DNA from: Escherichia coli
Lineage (GTDB): Bacteria > Pseudomonadota > Gammaproteobacteria > Enterobacterales > Enterobacteriaceae
Assembly: GCF_030013205.1 (NCBI RefSeq)
Contig: NZ_CP122648.1
Reading direction: 5' to 3' (one strand)
DNA length: 64,000 nucleotides
A program made the translations under genes and the position numbers. Of the stretch, positions 4,715 through 38,961 are shown in pieces; the first letter of the stretch is position 1, and every line of letters begins with the position of its first letter. The notes beneath the pieces were generated by a model, which saw nothing but the letters and a program-made list of their open reading frames with translations, was not told where the DNA came from and searched no databases.

Positions 4715-4977
4715 AGCTTTCCTCGCAGAGTTGGCCCATTTCCGCAAACGCCAGAAAAATCAGCGCGACGGCCGCAAAAGGGGAGCGGGAATTGCAGGAT
4801 GCAATCTCTGTAACAAGCGTAGCGGGTTTGCTTACACCCTCCGGTTAAGGAATGTACAATCAAACCAGTTGACGCCTGAATTGGGCAGTTAATGACCTTT
4901 TTACCCTACCAGTGTTTAAATTTGTGATCAACTTCACACATGGATTTCGTTTAGGACTCATTGATGTAACTGATTAT

Positions 4978-8440: not shown

Positions 8441-8862
8441 CCTCGCGCATACAACCGGGCAGTGATGTGATTGTCTGCGCTGAAATGGACGAACAGTGGG
8501 GCTACGTCGGTGCTAAATCACGTCAGCGCTGGCTGTTTTACGCGTATGACAGGATGCGGAGGACGGTTGTGGCGCACGTCTTCGGTGAACGCACTCTGGC
8601 CACACTGGAGCGTCTTCTGAGCCTGCTGTCGGCCTTTGAGGTCGTGGTATGGATGACGGATGGCTGGCCGCTGTATGAATCACGCCTGAAGGGAAAGCTG
8701 CACGTTATCAGCAAGCGTTATACTCAGCGCATTGAGCGGCATAACCTGAATCTGAGACAACATCTGGCAAGGCTGGGACGGAAGTCACTGTCGTTCTCAA
8801 AATCGGTGGAGCTGCATGACAAGGTCATCGGGCATTATCTGAACATAAAACACTATCAGTAA
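8359..8862 (+). CDS. insB: IS1 InsB reading frame (expressed as InsAB' transposase by -1 frameshift at A6C motif)
   Basis: 167-aa ORF in -1 frame relative to insA; ...WPQHDF...[44 protein letters not shown]...; slippery TTAAAAAACTC at ~8414-8424 inside overlap. Confidence 0.88.
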
Positions 8863-9259
8863 GTTGGAGTCATTACCCAAATTTTGTTACTTTTATTTAG
8901 CCAGATTGTTTTTGAGTTCTGTTTTCGGCTTTTATAATTACTGCAAGAAATAATTTTATATTTAGAGTGTTGTTTTTTATTAGAATAAATAACGTCTTCC
9001 GATACGTTTAAAACGTCAGAAAGATAAAAATATCATTTGAATTAAAAAAAGAACAAGTAGAGCATTAACCTTATCTTAAATAATAAATGGAGGCAAAAAG
9101 ATTATTTTCTTTTTGCGTTTCCTTTCAAATGAAAACGATCGTCGTCTAAAATCAGCAGTACCCCCGACAAACTCAGGGATTTTGTGTATAATTGCGGCCT
9201 TTTTCGGCAATCTGCCGTTTTTTGGCGCTTTTGCCCTGCTGACTTTTGAGGAAATCCAC

Positions 9260-9613: not shown

Positions 9614-9689
9614 GCCGGATAAGGCGCTCGCGCCGCATCCGGCAACGATGCCGACTGCCTGATGCGACGCTGACCGCGTCTTATCAGGC
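9614..9689. repeat. Pair of REP elements (BIME-like) between yjdM and yjdN
   Basis: gccggataaggcgctcgcgccgcatccggc and gcctgatgcgacgctgaccgcgtcttatcaggc, canonical REP palindromes in opposite orientation. Confidence 0.65.
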
Positions 9690-11143: not shown

Positions 11144-12160
11144 ATGAACGCTAAGATAATTGCCTCGCTGGCCTTCACCAGCATGTTCAGCCTCAGCACC
11201 CTGTTAAGCCCGGCGCACGCCGAAGAGCAGGAAAAGGCGTTGAATTTCGGCATTATTTCAACGGAATCACAGCAAAACCTGAAACCGCAATGGACGCCGT
11301 TCTTGCAGGATATGGAGAAGAAGCTGGGCGTGAAGGTCAACGCCTTCTTTGCCCCGGACTACGCGGGCATTATCCAGGGGATGCGCTTCAATAAAGTGGA
11401 TATCGCCTGGTACGGCAATCTGTCGGCGATGGAAGCGGTGGATCGCGCCAACGGTCAGGTCTTCGCCCAGACGGTCGCGGCGGATGGATCGCCGGGTTAC
11501 TGGAGCGTGTTGATCGTCAACAAAGATAGTCCGATCAACAACCTGAACGATCTGCTGGCGAAGCGGAAAGATCTCACCTTCGGCAATGGCGATCCTAACT
11601 CCACCTCTGGCTTCCTCGTCCCCGGTTACTACGTCTTTGCCAAAAACAATATCTCCGCCAGCGACTTCAAACGCACCGTCAACGCCGGGCATGAAACCAA
11701 CGCGCTGGCCGTCGCCAACAAGCAGGTGGATGTGGCGACCAACAACACCGAAAACCTCGACAAGCTGAAAACCTCCGCGCCAGAGAAGCTGAAAGAACTG
11801 AAGGTGATCTGGAAGTCGCCGCTGATCCCAGGCGATCCGATCGTCTGGCGCAAAAATCTGTCCGAAACCACCAAAGACAAGATCTACGACTTCTTTATGA
11901 ACTACGGCAAAACGCCGGAAGAGAAAGCGGTGCTGGAGCGCCTGGGCTGGGCCCCGTTCCGCGCCTCCAGCGACCTGCAACTGGTGCCGATTCGCCAGCT
12001 CGCACTGTTTAAAGAGATGCAGGGCGTGAAAAGCAATAAAGGGCTGAATGAGCAGGACAAGCTGGCAAAAACTAGCGCCATTCAGGCGCAGCTGGATGAC
12101 CTGGACCGCCTGAACAACGCGTTAAGCGCGATGAGTTCGGTGAGTAAAGCGGTGCAGTAA
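11144..12160 (+). CDS. phnD: Phosphonate ABC transporter periplasmic binding protein PhnD
   Basis: 338 aa with signal peptide (MNAKIIASLAFTSMFSLSTLLSPAHA); follows phnC by 24 bp. Confidence 0.95.
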   Translation: MNAKIIASLAFTSMFSLSTLLSPAHAEEQEKALNFGIISTESQQNLKPQWTPFLQDMEKKLGVKVNAFFAPDYAGIIQGMRFNKVDIAWYGNLSAMEAVDRANGQVFAQTVAADGSPGYWSVLIVNKDSPINNLNDLLAKRKDLTFGNGDPNSTSGFLVPGYYVFAKNNISASDFKRTVNAGHETNALAVANKQVDVATNNTENLDKLKTSAPEKLKELKVIWKSPLIPGDPIVWRKNLSETTKDKIYDFFMNYGKTPEEKAVLERLGWAPFRASSDLQLVPIRQLALFKEMQGVKSNKGLNEQDKLAKTSAIQAQLDDLDRLNNALSAMSSVSKAVQ

Positions 12161-12175
12161 TGTGCTCGATCGGTC

Positions 12176-12196
12176 CCCTCTCCCACAGGGAGAGGG
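12176..12196 (+). other. GC-rich intercistronic hairpin between phnD and phnE
   Basis: ccctctccc-aca-gggagaggg (9-bp perfect stem, 3-nt loop) 16 nt after phnD stop, 25 nt before phnE ATG. Confidence 0.5.
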
Positions 12197-12220
12197 AGAA
12201 AACATTAAACGGAGCAATAT

Positions 12221-13000
12221 ATGCAAACCATCACCATCGCCCCACCCAAGCGCAGCTGGTTCTCGCTTCTGAGCTGGGCCATTGTTCTCGCCGTGCTGGT
12301 CGTCTCGTGGCAGGGCGCGGAAATGGCCCCGCTCACGCTGATTAAAGACGGCGGCAACATGGCAACCTTCGCCGCCGACTTCTTCCCGCCCGATTTCAGC
12401 CAGTGGCAGGATTACCTCACCGAAATGGCCGTCACGCTGCAAATCGCCGTCTGGGGCACCGCGCTGGCGGTGGTTCTCTCCATCCCCTTCGGTCTGATGA
12501 GCGCCGAAAACCTGGTGCCGTGGTGGGTTTACCAGCCCGTACGCCGCCTGATGGACGCCTGCCGCGCCATTAACGAAATGGTCTTCGCCATGCTGTTCGT
12601 GGTCGCCGTTGGCCTTGGCCCGTTCGCTGGCGTGCTGGCGCTGTTTATCCACACCACCGGCGTGCTCTCCAAACTGCTTTCCGAAGCGGTAGAAGCAATT
12701 GAACCCGGCCCGGTGGAAGGTATTCGCGCCACCGGTGCCAACAAGCTCGAAGAGATCCTCTACGGCGTGCTGCCGCAGGTGATGCCGCTGCTGATCTCCT
12801 ACTCCCTCTATCGCTTCGAATCCAACGTCCGTTCGGCCACCGTTGTTGGCATGGTCGGCGCTGGCGGGATCGGCGTCACCCTGTGGGAAGCGATTCGCGG
12901 TTTCCAGTTCCAGCAAACCTGCGCCCTGATGGTGCTGATTATCGTCACGGTCAGCCTGCTGGATTTCCTCTCTCAACGGTTGCGTAAGCACTTTATCTGA
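12221..13000 (+). CDS. phnE: Phosphonate ABC transporter permease PhnE (apparently intact)
   Basis: Uninterrupted 259-aa ORF with multiple hydrophobic segments and the permease EAA-like region; no frameshift visible. Confidence 0.9.
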
Positions 13001-15844: not shown

Positions 15845-16682
15845 TCTGAGCGGCTACAACTTTGCCTACCTCGACGAGCAGACCAAGCGCATGATCCGCC
15901 GCGCCATCTTAAAAGCGGTGGCGATCCCCGGTTATCAGGTGCCGTTTGGCGGGCGCGAGATGCCGATGCCGTACGGCTGGGGAACTGGTGGTATCCAGCT
16001 TACCGCCAGCGTGATTGGCGAAAGCGACGTGTTGAAGGTGATTGACCAGGGTGCGGATGACACCACCAACGCCGTATCAATTCGCAACTTCTTTAAGCGC
16101 GTGACCGGGGTAAACACCACTGAACGTACGGACGATGCGACGCTTATCCAGACGCGCCACCGCATCCCCGAAACGCCGCTGACCGAAGATCAGATCATTA
16201 TTTTCCAGGTGCCGATCCCCGAACCGCTGCGCTTTATCGAGCCGCGCGAAACGGAGACCCGCACTATGCACGCGCTGGAGGAGTACGGCGTGATGCAGGT
16301 GAAGCTGTATGAAGATATCGCCCGCTTCGGTCATATCGCCACCACCTATGCCTATCCGGTGAAGGTGAACGGGCGCTACGTGATGGACCCGTCGCCGATC
16401 CCGAAATTCGATAACCCAAAAATGGACATGATGCCCGCCCTGCAGCTGTTCGGCGCAGGACGCGAGAAGCGCATCTATGCGGTGCCGCCGTTTACCCGCG
16501 TGGAAAGCCTCGATTTCGACGATCACCCGTTCACCGTTCAACAGTGGGATGAGCCGTGCGCCATCTGCGGATCGACCCACAGCTATCTCGACGAAGTGGT
16601 ACTGGATGACGCCGGAAACCGCATGTTTGTCTGCTCCGATACCGATTATTGCCGCCAACAGAGCGAGGCGAAAAGCCAATGA
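15837..16682 (+). CDS. phnJ: C-P lyase PhnJ (radical/Fe-S C-P bond cleaving subunit)
   Basis: 281 aa from ATG 15837 (MANLSGYNFAYLDEQTKRMIRR...); C-terminal Cys cluster CAICGS...FVCSDTDYC; 8-nt overlap with phnI. Confidence 0.93.
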   Translation: MANLSGYNFAYLDEQTKRMIRRAILKAVAIPGYQVPFGGREMPMPYGWGTGGIQLTASVIGESDVLKVIDQGADDTTNAVSIRNFFKRVTGVNTTERTDDATLIQTRHRIPETPLTEDQIIIFQVPIPEPLRFIEPRETETRTMHALEEYGVMQVKLYEDIARFGHIATTYAYPVKVNGRYVMDPSPIPKFDNPKMDMMPALQLFGAGREKRIYAVPPFTRVESLDFDDHPFTVQQWDEPCAICGSTHSYLDEVVLDDAGNRMFVCSDTDYCRQQSEAKSQ

Positions 16683-17437
16683 ATCAACCGTTACTTTCGG
16701 TCAATAACCTGACCCACCTTTACGCGCCGGGCAAAGGCTTTAGCGATGTCTCTTTTGATTTATGGCCGGGGGAAGTGCTGGGCATCGTCGGGGAATCCGG
16801 CTCCGGGAAGACCACGCTGCTGAAATCAATCTCCGCGCGCCTGACGCCGCAGCAGGGGGAGATTCGCTATGAAAACCGCTCCCTCTATGGCATGAGCGAG
16901 GCCGACCGCCGTCGCCTGCTGCGCACCGAATGGGGCGTGGTGCATCAGCATCCGCTCGACGGCCTGCGCCGCCAGGTGTCGGCAGGCGGCAATATCGGCG
17001 AGCGGCTGATGGCGACCGGGGCGCGTCATTACGGCGATATTCGCGCCACCGCGCAGAAGTGGCTGGAGGAGGTGGAGATTCCCTCCAACCGGATCGACGA
17101 CCTGCCGACCACCTTTTCCGGCGGTATGCAGCAACGTTTGCAGATTGCCCGCAACCTGGTGACGCATCCGAAGCTGGTGTTTATGGACGAGCCAACCGGC
17201 GGGCTGGATGTATCGGTACAGGCGCGCCTGCTCGATCTGCTGCGCGGTCTGGTGGTGGAGCTGAATCTGGCGGTGGTGATTGTCACCCACGATCTGGGCG
17301 TCGCCCGCCTGCTGGCGGACCGTTTGCTGGTGATGAAACAGGGGCAAGTGGTGGAGAGTGGGTTAACCGACCGCGTGCTCGACGACCCGCATCATCCGTA
17401 TACCCAGCTGCTGGTGTCATCGGTTTTGCAGAATTGA
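16679..17437 (+). CDS. phnK: C-P lyase system ATPase PhnK (ABC-type ATP-binding)
   Basis: 252 aa from ATG 16679 ([15 protein letters not shown]...), Walker [10 protein letters not shown]; ATGA overlap with phnJ stop. Confidence 0.93.
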
Positions 17438-17443
17438 GCCAGT

Positions 17444-17528
17444 GCCGGATACGGCGTAAACGCCTTATCCGGCCGACAAATGCGCTCCCCGTAGGTCGGA
17501 TAAGACGCGTCAGCGTCGCATCCGACAC
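17444..17528. repeat. Intra-operonic REP pair (BIME) between phnK and phnL
   Basis: gccggatacggcgtaaacgccttatccggc ... ggtcggataagacgcgtcagcgtcgcatccgacac; two REP palindromes in the 110-bp phnK-phnL gap. Confidence 0.65.
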
Positions 17529-17547
17529 CCGAACCACGAGGCGAAAA

Positions 17548-18228
17548 ATGATTAACGTACAAAACGTCAGTAAAACCTTCATCCTGCACCAGCAAAACGG
17601 CGTGCGCCTGCACGTCTTACAACGTGCCTCGCTCACCGTCAACGCAGGCGAATGCGTGGTACTCCACGGCCACTCCGGCAGTGGAAAATCAACCCTGCTA
17701 CGCTCGCTGTACGCCAACTATCTGCCCGATGAAGGTCAAATCCAGATCAAACACGGTGATGAGTGGGTAGACCTGATCACCGCGCCAGCCCGCAAAGTGG
17801 TGGAGATCCGCAAAACCACCATCGGCTGGGTGAGCCAGTTTCTGCGCGTCATCCCGCGTATTTCGGCACTGGAAGTGGTGATGCAGCCTCTGCTCGATAC
17901 CGGCGTACCGCGTGAAGCCTGCGCCGCTAAAGCCGCGCGTCTGCTCACCCGCCTGAACGTGCCTGAACGCCTGTGGCACCTGGCACCATCGACCTTCTCC
18001 GGCGGCGAACAGCAGCGCGTCAACATCGCCCGTGGCTTTATCGTCGACTATCCGATTCTGCTGCTCGACGAACCTACCGCCTCGCTGGACGCTAAAAACA
18101 GCGCCGCCGTAGTGGAACTGATCCGCGAAGCCAAAGCCCGCGGCGCGGCCATCGTCGGTATCTTCCATGACGAAGCCGTACGCAATGACGTCGCCGACCG
18201 CCTGCACCCGATGGGAGCCTCTTCATGA
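17548..18228 (+). CDS. phnL: C-P lyase system ATPase PhnL (ABC-type ATP-binding)
   Basis: 226 aa from ATG 17548 ([16 protein letters not shown]...), Walker [21 protein letters not shown]. Confidence 0.93.
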
Positions 18229-19361
18229 TTATCAATAACGTCAAACTGGTGCTGGAAAATGAAGTGGTGCACGGTTCACTGGAAGTACAGGATGGCGAAA
18301 TTCGCGCCTTTGCCGAAAGCCAGAGCCGCCAGCCGGAAGCGATGGACGGTGAAGGTGGCTGGCTACTGCCCGGACTGATTGAGCTGCATACCGACAACCT
18401 CGATAAATTCTTCACCCCGCGCCCGAAAGTCGACTGGCCCGCCCATTCGGCGATGAGCAGCCACGACGCGCTGATGGTGGCAAGCGGCATCACCACCGTA
18501 CTGGACGCCGTGGCGATTGGTGATGTGCGCGACGGCGGCGATCGGCTGGAGAATCTGGAGAAGATGATCAACGCCATCGAAGAGACGCAGAAACGCGGCG
18601 TCAACCGCGCCGAGCACCGCCTGCACCTGCGCTGCGAACTGCCGCACCACACCACGTTGCCGCTGTTTGAAAAACTGGTGCAGCGCGAACCGGTGACGCT
18701 GGTATCGCTGATGGACCACTCGCCAGGCCAGCGCCAGTTCGCCAATCGCGAGAAGTATCGCGAATATTATCAGGGCAAATACTCGCTCACCGATGTGCAG
18801 ATGCAGCAGTACGAAGAGGAACAGCTGGCGCTTGCCGCACGCTGGTCACAGCCGAATCGCGAATCCATCGCCGCCCTGTGCCGCGCGCGACAAATTGCGC
18901 TCGCCAGCCATGATGACGCCACGCACGCACACGTTGCCGAATCCCACCAGCTTGGCAGCGTGATCGCCGAATTTCCCACCACGTTCGAAGCGGCACAAGC
19001 CTCGCGCAAGCATGGCATGAACGTGCTGATGGGCGCGCCGAATATCGTGCGCGGCGGTTCGCACTCCGGCAACGTGGCGGCCAGTGAACTGGCGCAGCTT
19101 GGCCTGCTGGATATCCTCTCTTCCGACTACTACCCCGCCAGCCTGCTCGATGCGGCATTTCGCGTCGCCGATGACGAGAGCAACCGCTTTACGCTGCCGC
19201 AGGCGGTGAAGCTGGTGACTAAAAATCCGGCGCAGGCGCTTAATCTTCAGGATCGCGGAGTGATTGGCGAGGGCAAACGCGCCGACCTGGTGCTGGCGCA
19301 TCGCAAGGGCAACCACATTCATATCGACCACGTCTGGCGTCAGGGTAAAAGGGTGTTCTGA
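18225..19361 (+). CDS. phnM: PhnM, amidohydrolase-family RPnTP diphosphatase
   Basis: 378 aa; metal-dependent hydrolase fold motifs; ATGA overlap with phnL. Confidence 0.93.
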
Positions 19362-24228: not shown

Positions 24229-24311
24229 GCCGGATGATGATGCTAATGAAGAGTCTTATCCGGCCAACAAAATAACCTGAACGTAGACCTGATAAGTGTA
24301 GCCCATCAGGC
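24229..24311. repeat. REP-like palindromes between alsB and alsA
   Basis: gccggatgatgatgctaatgaagagtcttatccggcc and gacctgataagtgtagcccatcaggc. Confidence 0.5.
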
Positions 24312-38889: not shown

Positions 38890-38893
38890 GGTA

Positions 38894-38961
38894 GGCCTGA
38901 TAAGACGCGTTAAGCGTCGCATCAGGCATCCACACATTGCCGGGTGGATATCCCCGGCAAT
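38894..38961. repeat. REP element plus adjacent small hairpin between yjcO and gltP (convergent gene ends)
   Basis: ggcctgataagacgcgttaagcgtcgcatcaggc then ttgccgggtggatatccccggcaa. Confidence 0.55.

Follow-up and report, generated by a model that had tools for sequence, protein, structure and literature searches.

The stretch of E. coli DNA analysed here (the window, 64,000 nt) carries the phn operon, in which phnK and phnL are separated by a 110-nt spacer that contains two REP palindromes in inverse orientation, REP1 and REP2 (Table 1). Both genes are identified by NCBIfam equivalog matches well above the cut-off. An earlier note on this DNA had placed a pair of REP palindromes in a 110-bp phnK-phnL gap, and both units indeed lie where it put them, in a gap of that length. 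The spacer of K-12 MG1655 is also 110 nt long and nearly identical in sequence, and the 401 bases around the junction are 100% identical to E. coli strain 7/2 and 96% identical to K-12. The right flank of the spacer is nearly unstructured (-1.7 kcal/mol), the phnL Shine-Dalgarno sequence within it is unstructured and invariant, and translation of phnL would start independently of phnK, uncoupled from it.

Table 1. Positions in the window of the phnK-phnL junction, its repeat units and other features of the region
Feature	Position	Strand	Remarks
Further REP unit	9614-9643		
Further REP unit	9657-9689		
phnD-phnE spacer	12161-12220		palindrome CCCCTCTCCC-ACA-GGGAGAGGG, BoxC-like
phnE	12221-13000		259 codons
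phnK coding sequence	16679-17437	+	TGA stop 17435-17437; NCBIfam TIGR02323, 410 bits; same length as K-12 phnK
phnK-phnL spacer	17438-17547	+	110 nt; inside the phnC-P mRNA
REP1	17444-17477	+	Y-type, iREP orientation; stem 17444-17473; arms 17444-17457 and 17460-17473, 93% complementary; hairpin -20.6 kcal/mol
Linker	17478-17490	+	AAATGCGCTCCCC, 13 nt, S-type, tail-to-tail; single-stranded in the predicted fold
REP2	17491-17528	+	Z2-type, REP orientation, inverted relative to REP1; 5' GTAG 17491-17494; stem 17495-17526; arms 17495-17508 and 17513-17526, 86% complementary; hairpin -19.9 kcal/mol
Right flank	17529-17547	+	C-rich; contains phnL Shine-Dalgarno GAGG 17538-17541 (6 nt 5' of ATG)
phnL coding sequence	17548-18228	+	ATG 17548; NCBIfam TIGR02324, 369 bits, profile aligned from residue 1
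Further REP unit	24283-24311		Z1
Further REP unit	38891-38927		Z2
Further REP unit	49359-49393		Y

Several other readings of the junction were considered and set aside. The phnL frame is open upstream through the spacer (ORF 16930-18228), but a longer PhnL was rejected since the PhnL profile begins at the annotated ATG; a 144-aa ORF on the opposite strand (17283-17717) has no Pfam match and was not accepted as a gene. A scan of the sense strand from 16600 to 18300 detected no terminator-like site and no internal sigma-70 promoter for phnL, and a consensus scan detected no antisense promoter. From about 17520 to about 17700 the base composition favours C over G, and such a C-rich, G-poor RNA is compatible with Rho loading; it is counted here as no evidence for it.

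The REP1 stem begins 6 nt past the TGA of phnK, within the distance of about 15 nt that defines stop-codon proximity for REPs, and pairs 14 nt with 14 nt with a single C/U mismatch. REP1 is identical to the Y units of REP325 of K-12 at 32 of 34 positions and matches a Y consensus at 29 of 31. In the window strain and EcPF15 its tail is CGAC; K-12, like most strains, has CTAC, as do five other aligned alleles. REP2 folds into a stem of 7 + 5 pairs with a 2x2 internal loop; it shares 30 of 36 positions with the Z2 units of REP325 and 23 of 24 core positions with the Z2 consensus, and an identical 37-nt copy occurs elsewhere in another E. coli genome. The linker is invariant across eight diverse E. 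coli alleles and is similar to the tail-to-tail motif of REP325 (AAATTCCCGCACCCTCC). The predicted RNA fold of the whole spacer (-49.1 kcal/mol) is far more stable than that of shuffled sequences (-33.5 +/- 3.1 kcal/mol, z = -5), the REP pattern found no match in 100 shuffles of the window, and an E. coli genome has a median of 29 places that match part of the 110-nt spacer. The element is no chance palindrome: the spacer almost certainly holds one BIME-2-like unit, in which a 13-nt S-type linker joins a Y-type iREP to a Z2-type REP. The element is of an ordinary, already catalogued kind and is present in K-12.

The details of this assignment can be compared with published definitions, in which REP units have GTAG or CTAC at the stem foot and BIME-2 elements are tandem multi-copy arrays (PMC3333891). 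Both units are imperfect palindromes of 30-40 nt with a stem mismatch or an internal loop, both are repeated, dispersed and extragenic, lying between a stop and a start codon, and the expected foot is present as GTAG in REP2 and, in K-12, as CTAC in REP1. The combination of Y and Z2 units, inverse to each other across a short tail-to-tail S linker, is that of BIME-2; because the window and all eight aligned alleles contain a single unit, with no tandem copies joined by s, l or r motifs, the name "single BIME-2-like unit" is preferred. BIME-1 (RIP), which combines Z1 and Y units with a long L linker and an IHF site, does not agree with the short linker or the Z2-like second unit, and the IHF consensus WATCAANNNNTTR has no match on either strand at the junction. 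The Rfam model naRNA4 (RF02564), which was built on a REP325 unit, aligns over its full length to 17443-17527 at scores (39.0 bits on the + strand, 40.9 on the - strand) below the gathering threshold of 59.5, so the element does not belong to that family as Rfam delimits it. Neither REP1 (followed by CGACAAAUG) nor REP2 (followed by ACACCCGAAC) is succeeded by a U tract, and neither is an intrinsic terminator. The element is not REP324, which is the phnD-phnE element of K-12; the RefSeq feature table of K-12 shows no REP features.

Most of the genes from phnF to phnP are packed without spacers: seven junctions overlap (phnG-phnH by 4 nt, phnH-phnI by 1, phnI-phnJ by 8, phnJ-phnK by 4, phnL-phnM by 4, phnM-phnN by 1 and phnN-phnO by 14) and two abut (phnF-phnG, 0 nt; phnO-phnP, +1 nt), leaving phnK-phnL (+110 nt) as the sole junction in this part of the operon that does neither. 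The statement of the earlier note that almost all phn genes overlap is thus mostly right from phnF to phnP, but it passes over the 60-nt spacer of phnD-phnE. Short gaps also separate phnC from phnD (+24 nt) and phnE from phnF (+20 nt). The phnK-phnL junction is not the only spacer of the operon occupied by a repeat; phnD-phnE is another.

Occupation of the phnK-phnL junction was surveyed in 5,426 complete E. coli genomes, of which 5,391 have the 3' end of phnK. The BIME is present in 4,841-4,845 of these (about 90%), and a GC-rich palindrome of 176 nt, unrelated in sequence to REP, takes its place in 546 (about 10%), at the same position and next to the same right flank, the bulk of which (CGAACCACGAGGCGAAAA) is common to both alleles. 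Two genomes have a third version of 167 nt with three REP units, in which a long linker contains a match to the IHF consensus (locus L003). Together these counts account for all the genomes, which means that an empty junction is absent or extremely rare in E. coli; that essentially every genome is occupied is a new point. The 176-nt palindrome folds more strongly than the BIME (-95 kcal/mol) and belongs to a family dispersed at a median of 17 places per genome, which is presumably BoxC; the family is called BoxC-like here. BoxC is listed as a 56-bp element with about 22-32 copies (PMC2267715).

The phnD-phnE spacer of the window contains a palindrome of this same BoxC-like family (-25.5 kcal/mol, z = -4), and that of K-12 contains the two-REP BIME catalogued as REP324 (locus L001, approximately 11232-11336, - strand). 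At phnD-phnE the K-12 type of BIME is present in 3,878 E. coli genomes and the BoxC-like element in 1,505, and essentially none are empty. The dimorphism of BIME and BoxC-like element at both junctions of the operon is also a new point. The gene before this repeat, phnD, encodes a binding protein, as do malE and hisJ in the classical cases. Strain Ec-042-T20, which has the BoxC-like allele at phnK-phnL, has a phnD-phnE spacer of 61 nt, matching the BoxC-like form in length (length being the only feature compared). The annotated ATG of the phnE1 pseudogene of K-12 (L001 11280-11282) falls inside REP324, and both the window and strains annotated with PGAP begin phnE about 50 nt further downstream (ATGCAAACC...); with the downstream start, the K-12 spacer measures about 105 nt, not 54 nt. 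The phnE gene is intact in the window strain and a pseudogene in K-12.

Within E. coli the phnK-phnL spacer varies little. In pairwise comparisons the spacer differs by 2.2% on average, versus 11.4% at flanking four-fold degenerate sites and 1.8% at first and second codon positions, so that the spacer diverges about five times more slowly than four-fold sites nearby. Virtually no genome falls below 95% identity to K-12 in the spacer, and flanking 110-mers are only 90-95% identical to K-12 in 23% of genomes for phnK and 30% for phnL. Alignment of eight alleles that span the range of identity (five of them distinct) located six variable sites: two between the stop codon and REP1, one in a loop, one in the CTAC foot and two in the REP1 stem. 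Both stem variants retain pairing (C-G to U-G, G-U to A-U), and none of the 24 pairs is lost in any of the five distinct alleles; no double compensatory changes occur among them, the variation being too slight, and covariation therefore speaks neither for nor against the stems. The spacer is therefore constrained or homogenised, and this includes the linker and right flank, which are not REP sequence. Low divergence could reflect gene conversion among REP copies instead of selection at this site, but conversion would not explain the invariance of the linker and the right flank.

Comparison of 78 species in which phnK and phnL are adjacent indicates that the gap between them is widespread. The two genes do not overlap in 73 of the 78 (median gap 26 nt), versus overlaps of phnL with phnM in 57 of 71 species and of phnM with phnN in 43 of 61. 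In Leclercia, one Enterobacter, Citrobacter sp. FP75, Cedecea neteri and Hafnia the gap is 7-9 nt, approximately a stop codon and a Shine-Dalgarno sequence. It exceeds 60 nt in 16 species, most of which have strongly folding repeats there. One to three REPs of the type proper to the species are present in Kluyvera, Enterobacter cloacae, E. asburiae, strain RIT691, Citrobacter werkmanii, Pluralibacter and Cedecea sulfonylureivorans; C. werkmanii and Pluralibacter have the same layout as E. coli (an iREP ending in CTAC, a linker of about 14 nt and a REP beginning with GTAG). REP-like palindromes occupy the junction in two Pseudomonas. The spacers of Pelagibacterium and two Devosia (197-253 nt) consist of GC-rich palindromes (CCCCTCCCC...GGGGAGGGG) with predicted folds of -99 to -128 kcal/mol; these are superficially BoxC-like.

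The phnK-phnL junction is therefore an old, conserved point of uncoupling that has been filled repeatedly by palindromic repeats, and its repeated colonisation in other genera is a further new point. Overlapping junctions refuse insertions, and for that reason the comparison of species does not by itself separate a permissive site from a selected one. A contig of Pseudocitrobacter faecalis DSM 27453 encodes PhnK and PhnL proteins 98-99% identical to those of E. coli, separated by a spacer of 298 nt (locus L035, 1203-1500) with three tandem BoxC-like units; this phn region could have come from E. coli by horizontal transfer, or the contig could be contaminated or misassigned.

A search of the literature found no paper on the REP pair between phnK and phnL. 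Directional RNA-seq of K-12 under phosphate starvation describes "varying/decreasing" coverage along the phn operon and assembled the transcript as a single phnC-P unit (PMC3734233); given this continuity under induction, the BIME is no strong terminator. In low-expression samples of the same study phnG-K and phnL-P were assembled separately, with the break exactly at the BIME (PMC3734233), a position where reads map poorly or non-uniquely because of the repeats, so that the break is weak evidence and possibly an artefact. Read counts (baseMean) from uninduced K-12 are 16 for phnJ, 32 for phnK, 118 for phnL and 43 for phnM; the excess of phnL over phnK runs opposite to a bias toward upstream genes, but these levels are close to noise and the treatment of strands is ambiguous. 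The phn values in an RNA-seq study of PhoB are noisy, many of them lacking p-values (PMC7657598). An antisense segment of 481 nt (U00096.2 4315582-4316062) has been reported that covers the 5' end of phnL, the whole spacer and 33 nt of phnK (PMC3734233); it corresponds to approximately 17405-17885 of the window, - strand.

The proteins encoded on the two sides of the junction act together. All of phnGHIJKLM are required for C-P cleavage, and PhnK and PhnL are mounted on the PhnGHIJ core as a 2:2 double dimer in which both ATPases are essential (PMC9947105). The division drawn by the earlier note between core genes phnG-K and accessory genes phnL-P is therefore inaccurate, PhnL and PhnM being as indispensable as the genes before the spacer. 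With PhnK and PhnL both essential and bound 2:2, a strong bias of expression toward PhnK over PhnL would have no obvious use.

The explanation that we favour, to which we give a probability of about 0.5, is that the BIME between phnK and phnL has a measurable but modest effect as a stabiliser and attenuator of the mRNA, amounting to mild punctuation of the operon. The decay barrier or partial terminator put forward in the earlier note is likewise what the standard model of REPs would lead one to expect. The ancestral spacer would have been short (approximately 10-30 nt) with its own Shine-Dalgarno sequence, and a REP pair could therefore land there without damage to a gene, the REP-associated transposase RAYT being the probable agent. 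In the Pho-induced mRNA of the 14 phn genes, the two hairpins of about -20 kcal/mol each would block 3'-to-5' exonucleases, so that segments ending after phnK may outlive phnL-P, and transcription into phnL-P may also be modestly attenuated by a non-intrinsic route, probably pausing or Rho, that would still permit read-through. Translation of phnL would use an accessible Shine-Dalgarno sequence of its own, and the net result would be a mild bias of expression toward upstream genes and no on/off switch. Owing to the closeness of REP1 to the stop codon, the terminating ribosome must melt REP1, which may slightly lower the output of PhnK. Indirect support may be drawn from the analogy with REP325, the fall in coverage along the operon and the break at the junction in low-expression samples; the full occupancy of the site, the slow divergence of the spacer and the retention of stem pairs would likewise be indirect support. 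Against this explanation, spacers of 7-9 nt suffice in Leclercia, Citrobacter sp. FP75, Cedecea neteri and Hafnia.

Rather less probable, at odds well short of even, is that the REP pair is a neutral passenger, a selfish or tolerated insertion in a permissive spacer without meaningful effect on phn, conserved by concerted evolution and the rarity of precise deletion. The prevalence of non-overlapping phnK-phnL junctions (73 of 78 species) agrees with a permissive site, as do the exchange of its occupant within E. coli (BIME in about 90% of genomes, a BoxC-like element in about 10%, three REPs in two) and its sporadic occupancy in other Enterobacteriaceae, where near relatives have spacers of 7-9 nt. 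Read-through under induction and the need for PhnK and PhnL in a 1:1 ratio also fit an element of no consequence, and REP copy number is evidently free to vary nearby, REP325 being one unit here and six in K-12. Against mere tolerance, not one empty site is found among about 5,391 genomes, the linker and right flank are invariant beyond the reach of conversion among REP copies, the spacer diverges five times less than four-fold sites, each alternative occupant is a strongly folding palindrome, and tandem gene pairs flanking REPs are in general biased in expression.

It is possible, though doubtful, that phnD-phnE and phnK-phnL need a stable RNA hairpin and that any family of repeats may supply it. 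BIME and BoxC-like elements would then be interchangeable and would have been swapped repeatedly in E. coli, and unrelated repeats would have converged on the phnK-phnL junction in Enterobacter, Citrobacter, Pluralibacter, Kluyvera, Cedecea, Pseudomonas and Devosia-like alphaproteobacteria.

A primarily translational role is improbable: REP1 would slow termination and thereby bring on mRNA cleavage and tmRNA tagging, yielding less PhnK, and the spacer would enforce an uncoupled start of phnL. Liang, Rudd and Deutscher (Mol Cell 2015) reportedly found translation of the upstream gene to be reduced where a REP lies within about 15 nt of its stop codon. The distance of 6 nt, read from the sequence, and the stability of the REP1 hairpin (-20.6 kcal/mol) suit such a role, as does the start of structure approximately 8-14 nt past the stop codon in other occupants (the BoxC-like phnK-phnL allele and both phnD-phnE alleles), and the phnL Shine-Dalgarno sequence is conserved and unstructured. 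About half of all REPs, however, are said to sit this near a stop codon, which makes the distance undistinctive, and PhnK and PhnL are needed in equal amounts. Very improbable is a role at the level of DNA, as a site at which DNA gyrase, Pol I or HU relieves supercoiling of the 11-kb operon or as punctuation of the antisense transcript: BIMEs are reported to interact with gyrase and IHF (PMC2267715, PMC4550694), the composition is Y + Z2 and the 481-nt antisense segment spans the spacer (PMC3734233), but the element is a single unit and not the tandem array typical of BIME-2, no IHF consensus or antisense promoter was found, an unrelated BoxC-like element stands in its place in 10% of strains, and a genome-wide role of REPs in chromosome organisation was not supported in a 2026 study (bioRxiv 10.64898/2026.03.23.713779).

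By itself the BIME between phnK and phnL is of little import, REP and BIME being the best-known repeats of E. coli. The phn operon is of more use as a natural test bed, with two spacers that each hold either a BIME or a BoxC-like hairpin and are never empty in the E. coli examined, and with related genera in which the phnK-phnL gap is 7-9 nt. Isogenic swaps of the natural alleles could gauge how a REP of two units affects mRNA decay, read-through and the stoichiometry of an enzyme complex encoded by one operon, and whether BoxC is equivalent to it.

Among known systems, REP325 between yjdM and yjdN makes the mRNA upstream of it more stable and attenuates, in part through Rho, the gene that follows (bioRxiv 10.64898/2026.03.23.713779). 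Tandem gene pairs separated by REPs are biased toward upstream expression genome-wide. REP325, described as Y/Z2 (PMC4550694) and the basis of naRNA4, is made of the same Y and Z2 units as the phnK-phnL pair and likewise lies between co-transcribed tandem genes, about 8 kb upstream. It differs in having 12 units in K-12 (six Y-Z2) and two in the window strain (one Y-Z2, 9614-9689), and in that an "l" linker connects Y and Z2 head to head; the phnK-phnL units meet tail to tail across a short linker. The phnK-phnL pair also differs in lying inside a long Pho-regulated operon, and the effect on expression has been shown for REP325 only. The sequence upstream of yjdM (approximately 8700-8880) ends in ...CACTATCAGTAAGTTGGAGTCATTACCC, which looks like a terminal inverted repeat of IS1 lying after the 3' end of the IS1 transposase gene.

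The phnK-phnL pair resembles BIME-2 in its Y and Z2 units, their inverse arrangement, the short tail-to-tail linker and the GTAG/CTAC feet, and differs from it in being a single unit with, in the window strain, a Y foot of CGAC. The alternative element resembles BoxC as a GC-rich dispersed palindrome of similar copy number, and its sequence has no relation to REP. The classical precedents for a REP pair within an operon are malE-malF and hisJ-hisQ, reportedly described by Newbury, Higgins and colleagues in 1987, where a pair in the intercistronic spacer is said to have been proposed as a barrier to 3' exonucleases that leaves more of the upstream product than of the downstream one. There the upstream gene encodes a periplasmic binding protein needed in large excess, whereas PhnK and PhnL are 2:2 partners; the phnD-phnE spacer is thus a closer analogue of the malE and hisJ cases than the phnK-phnL spacer.
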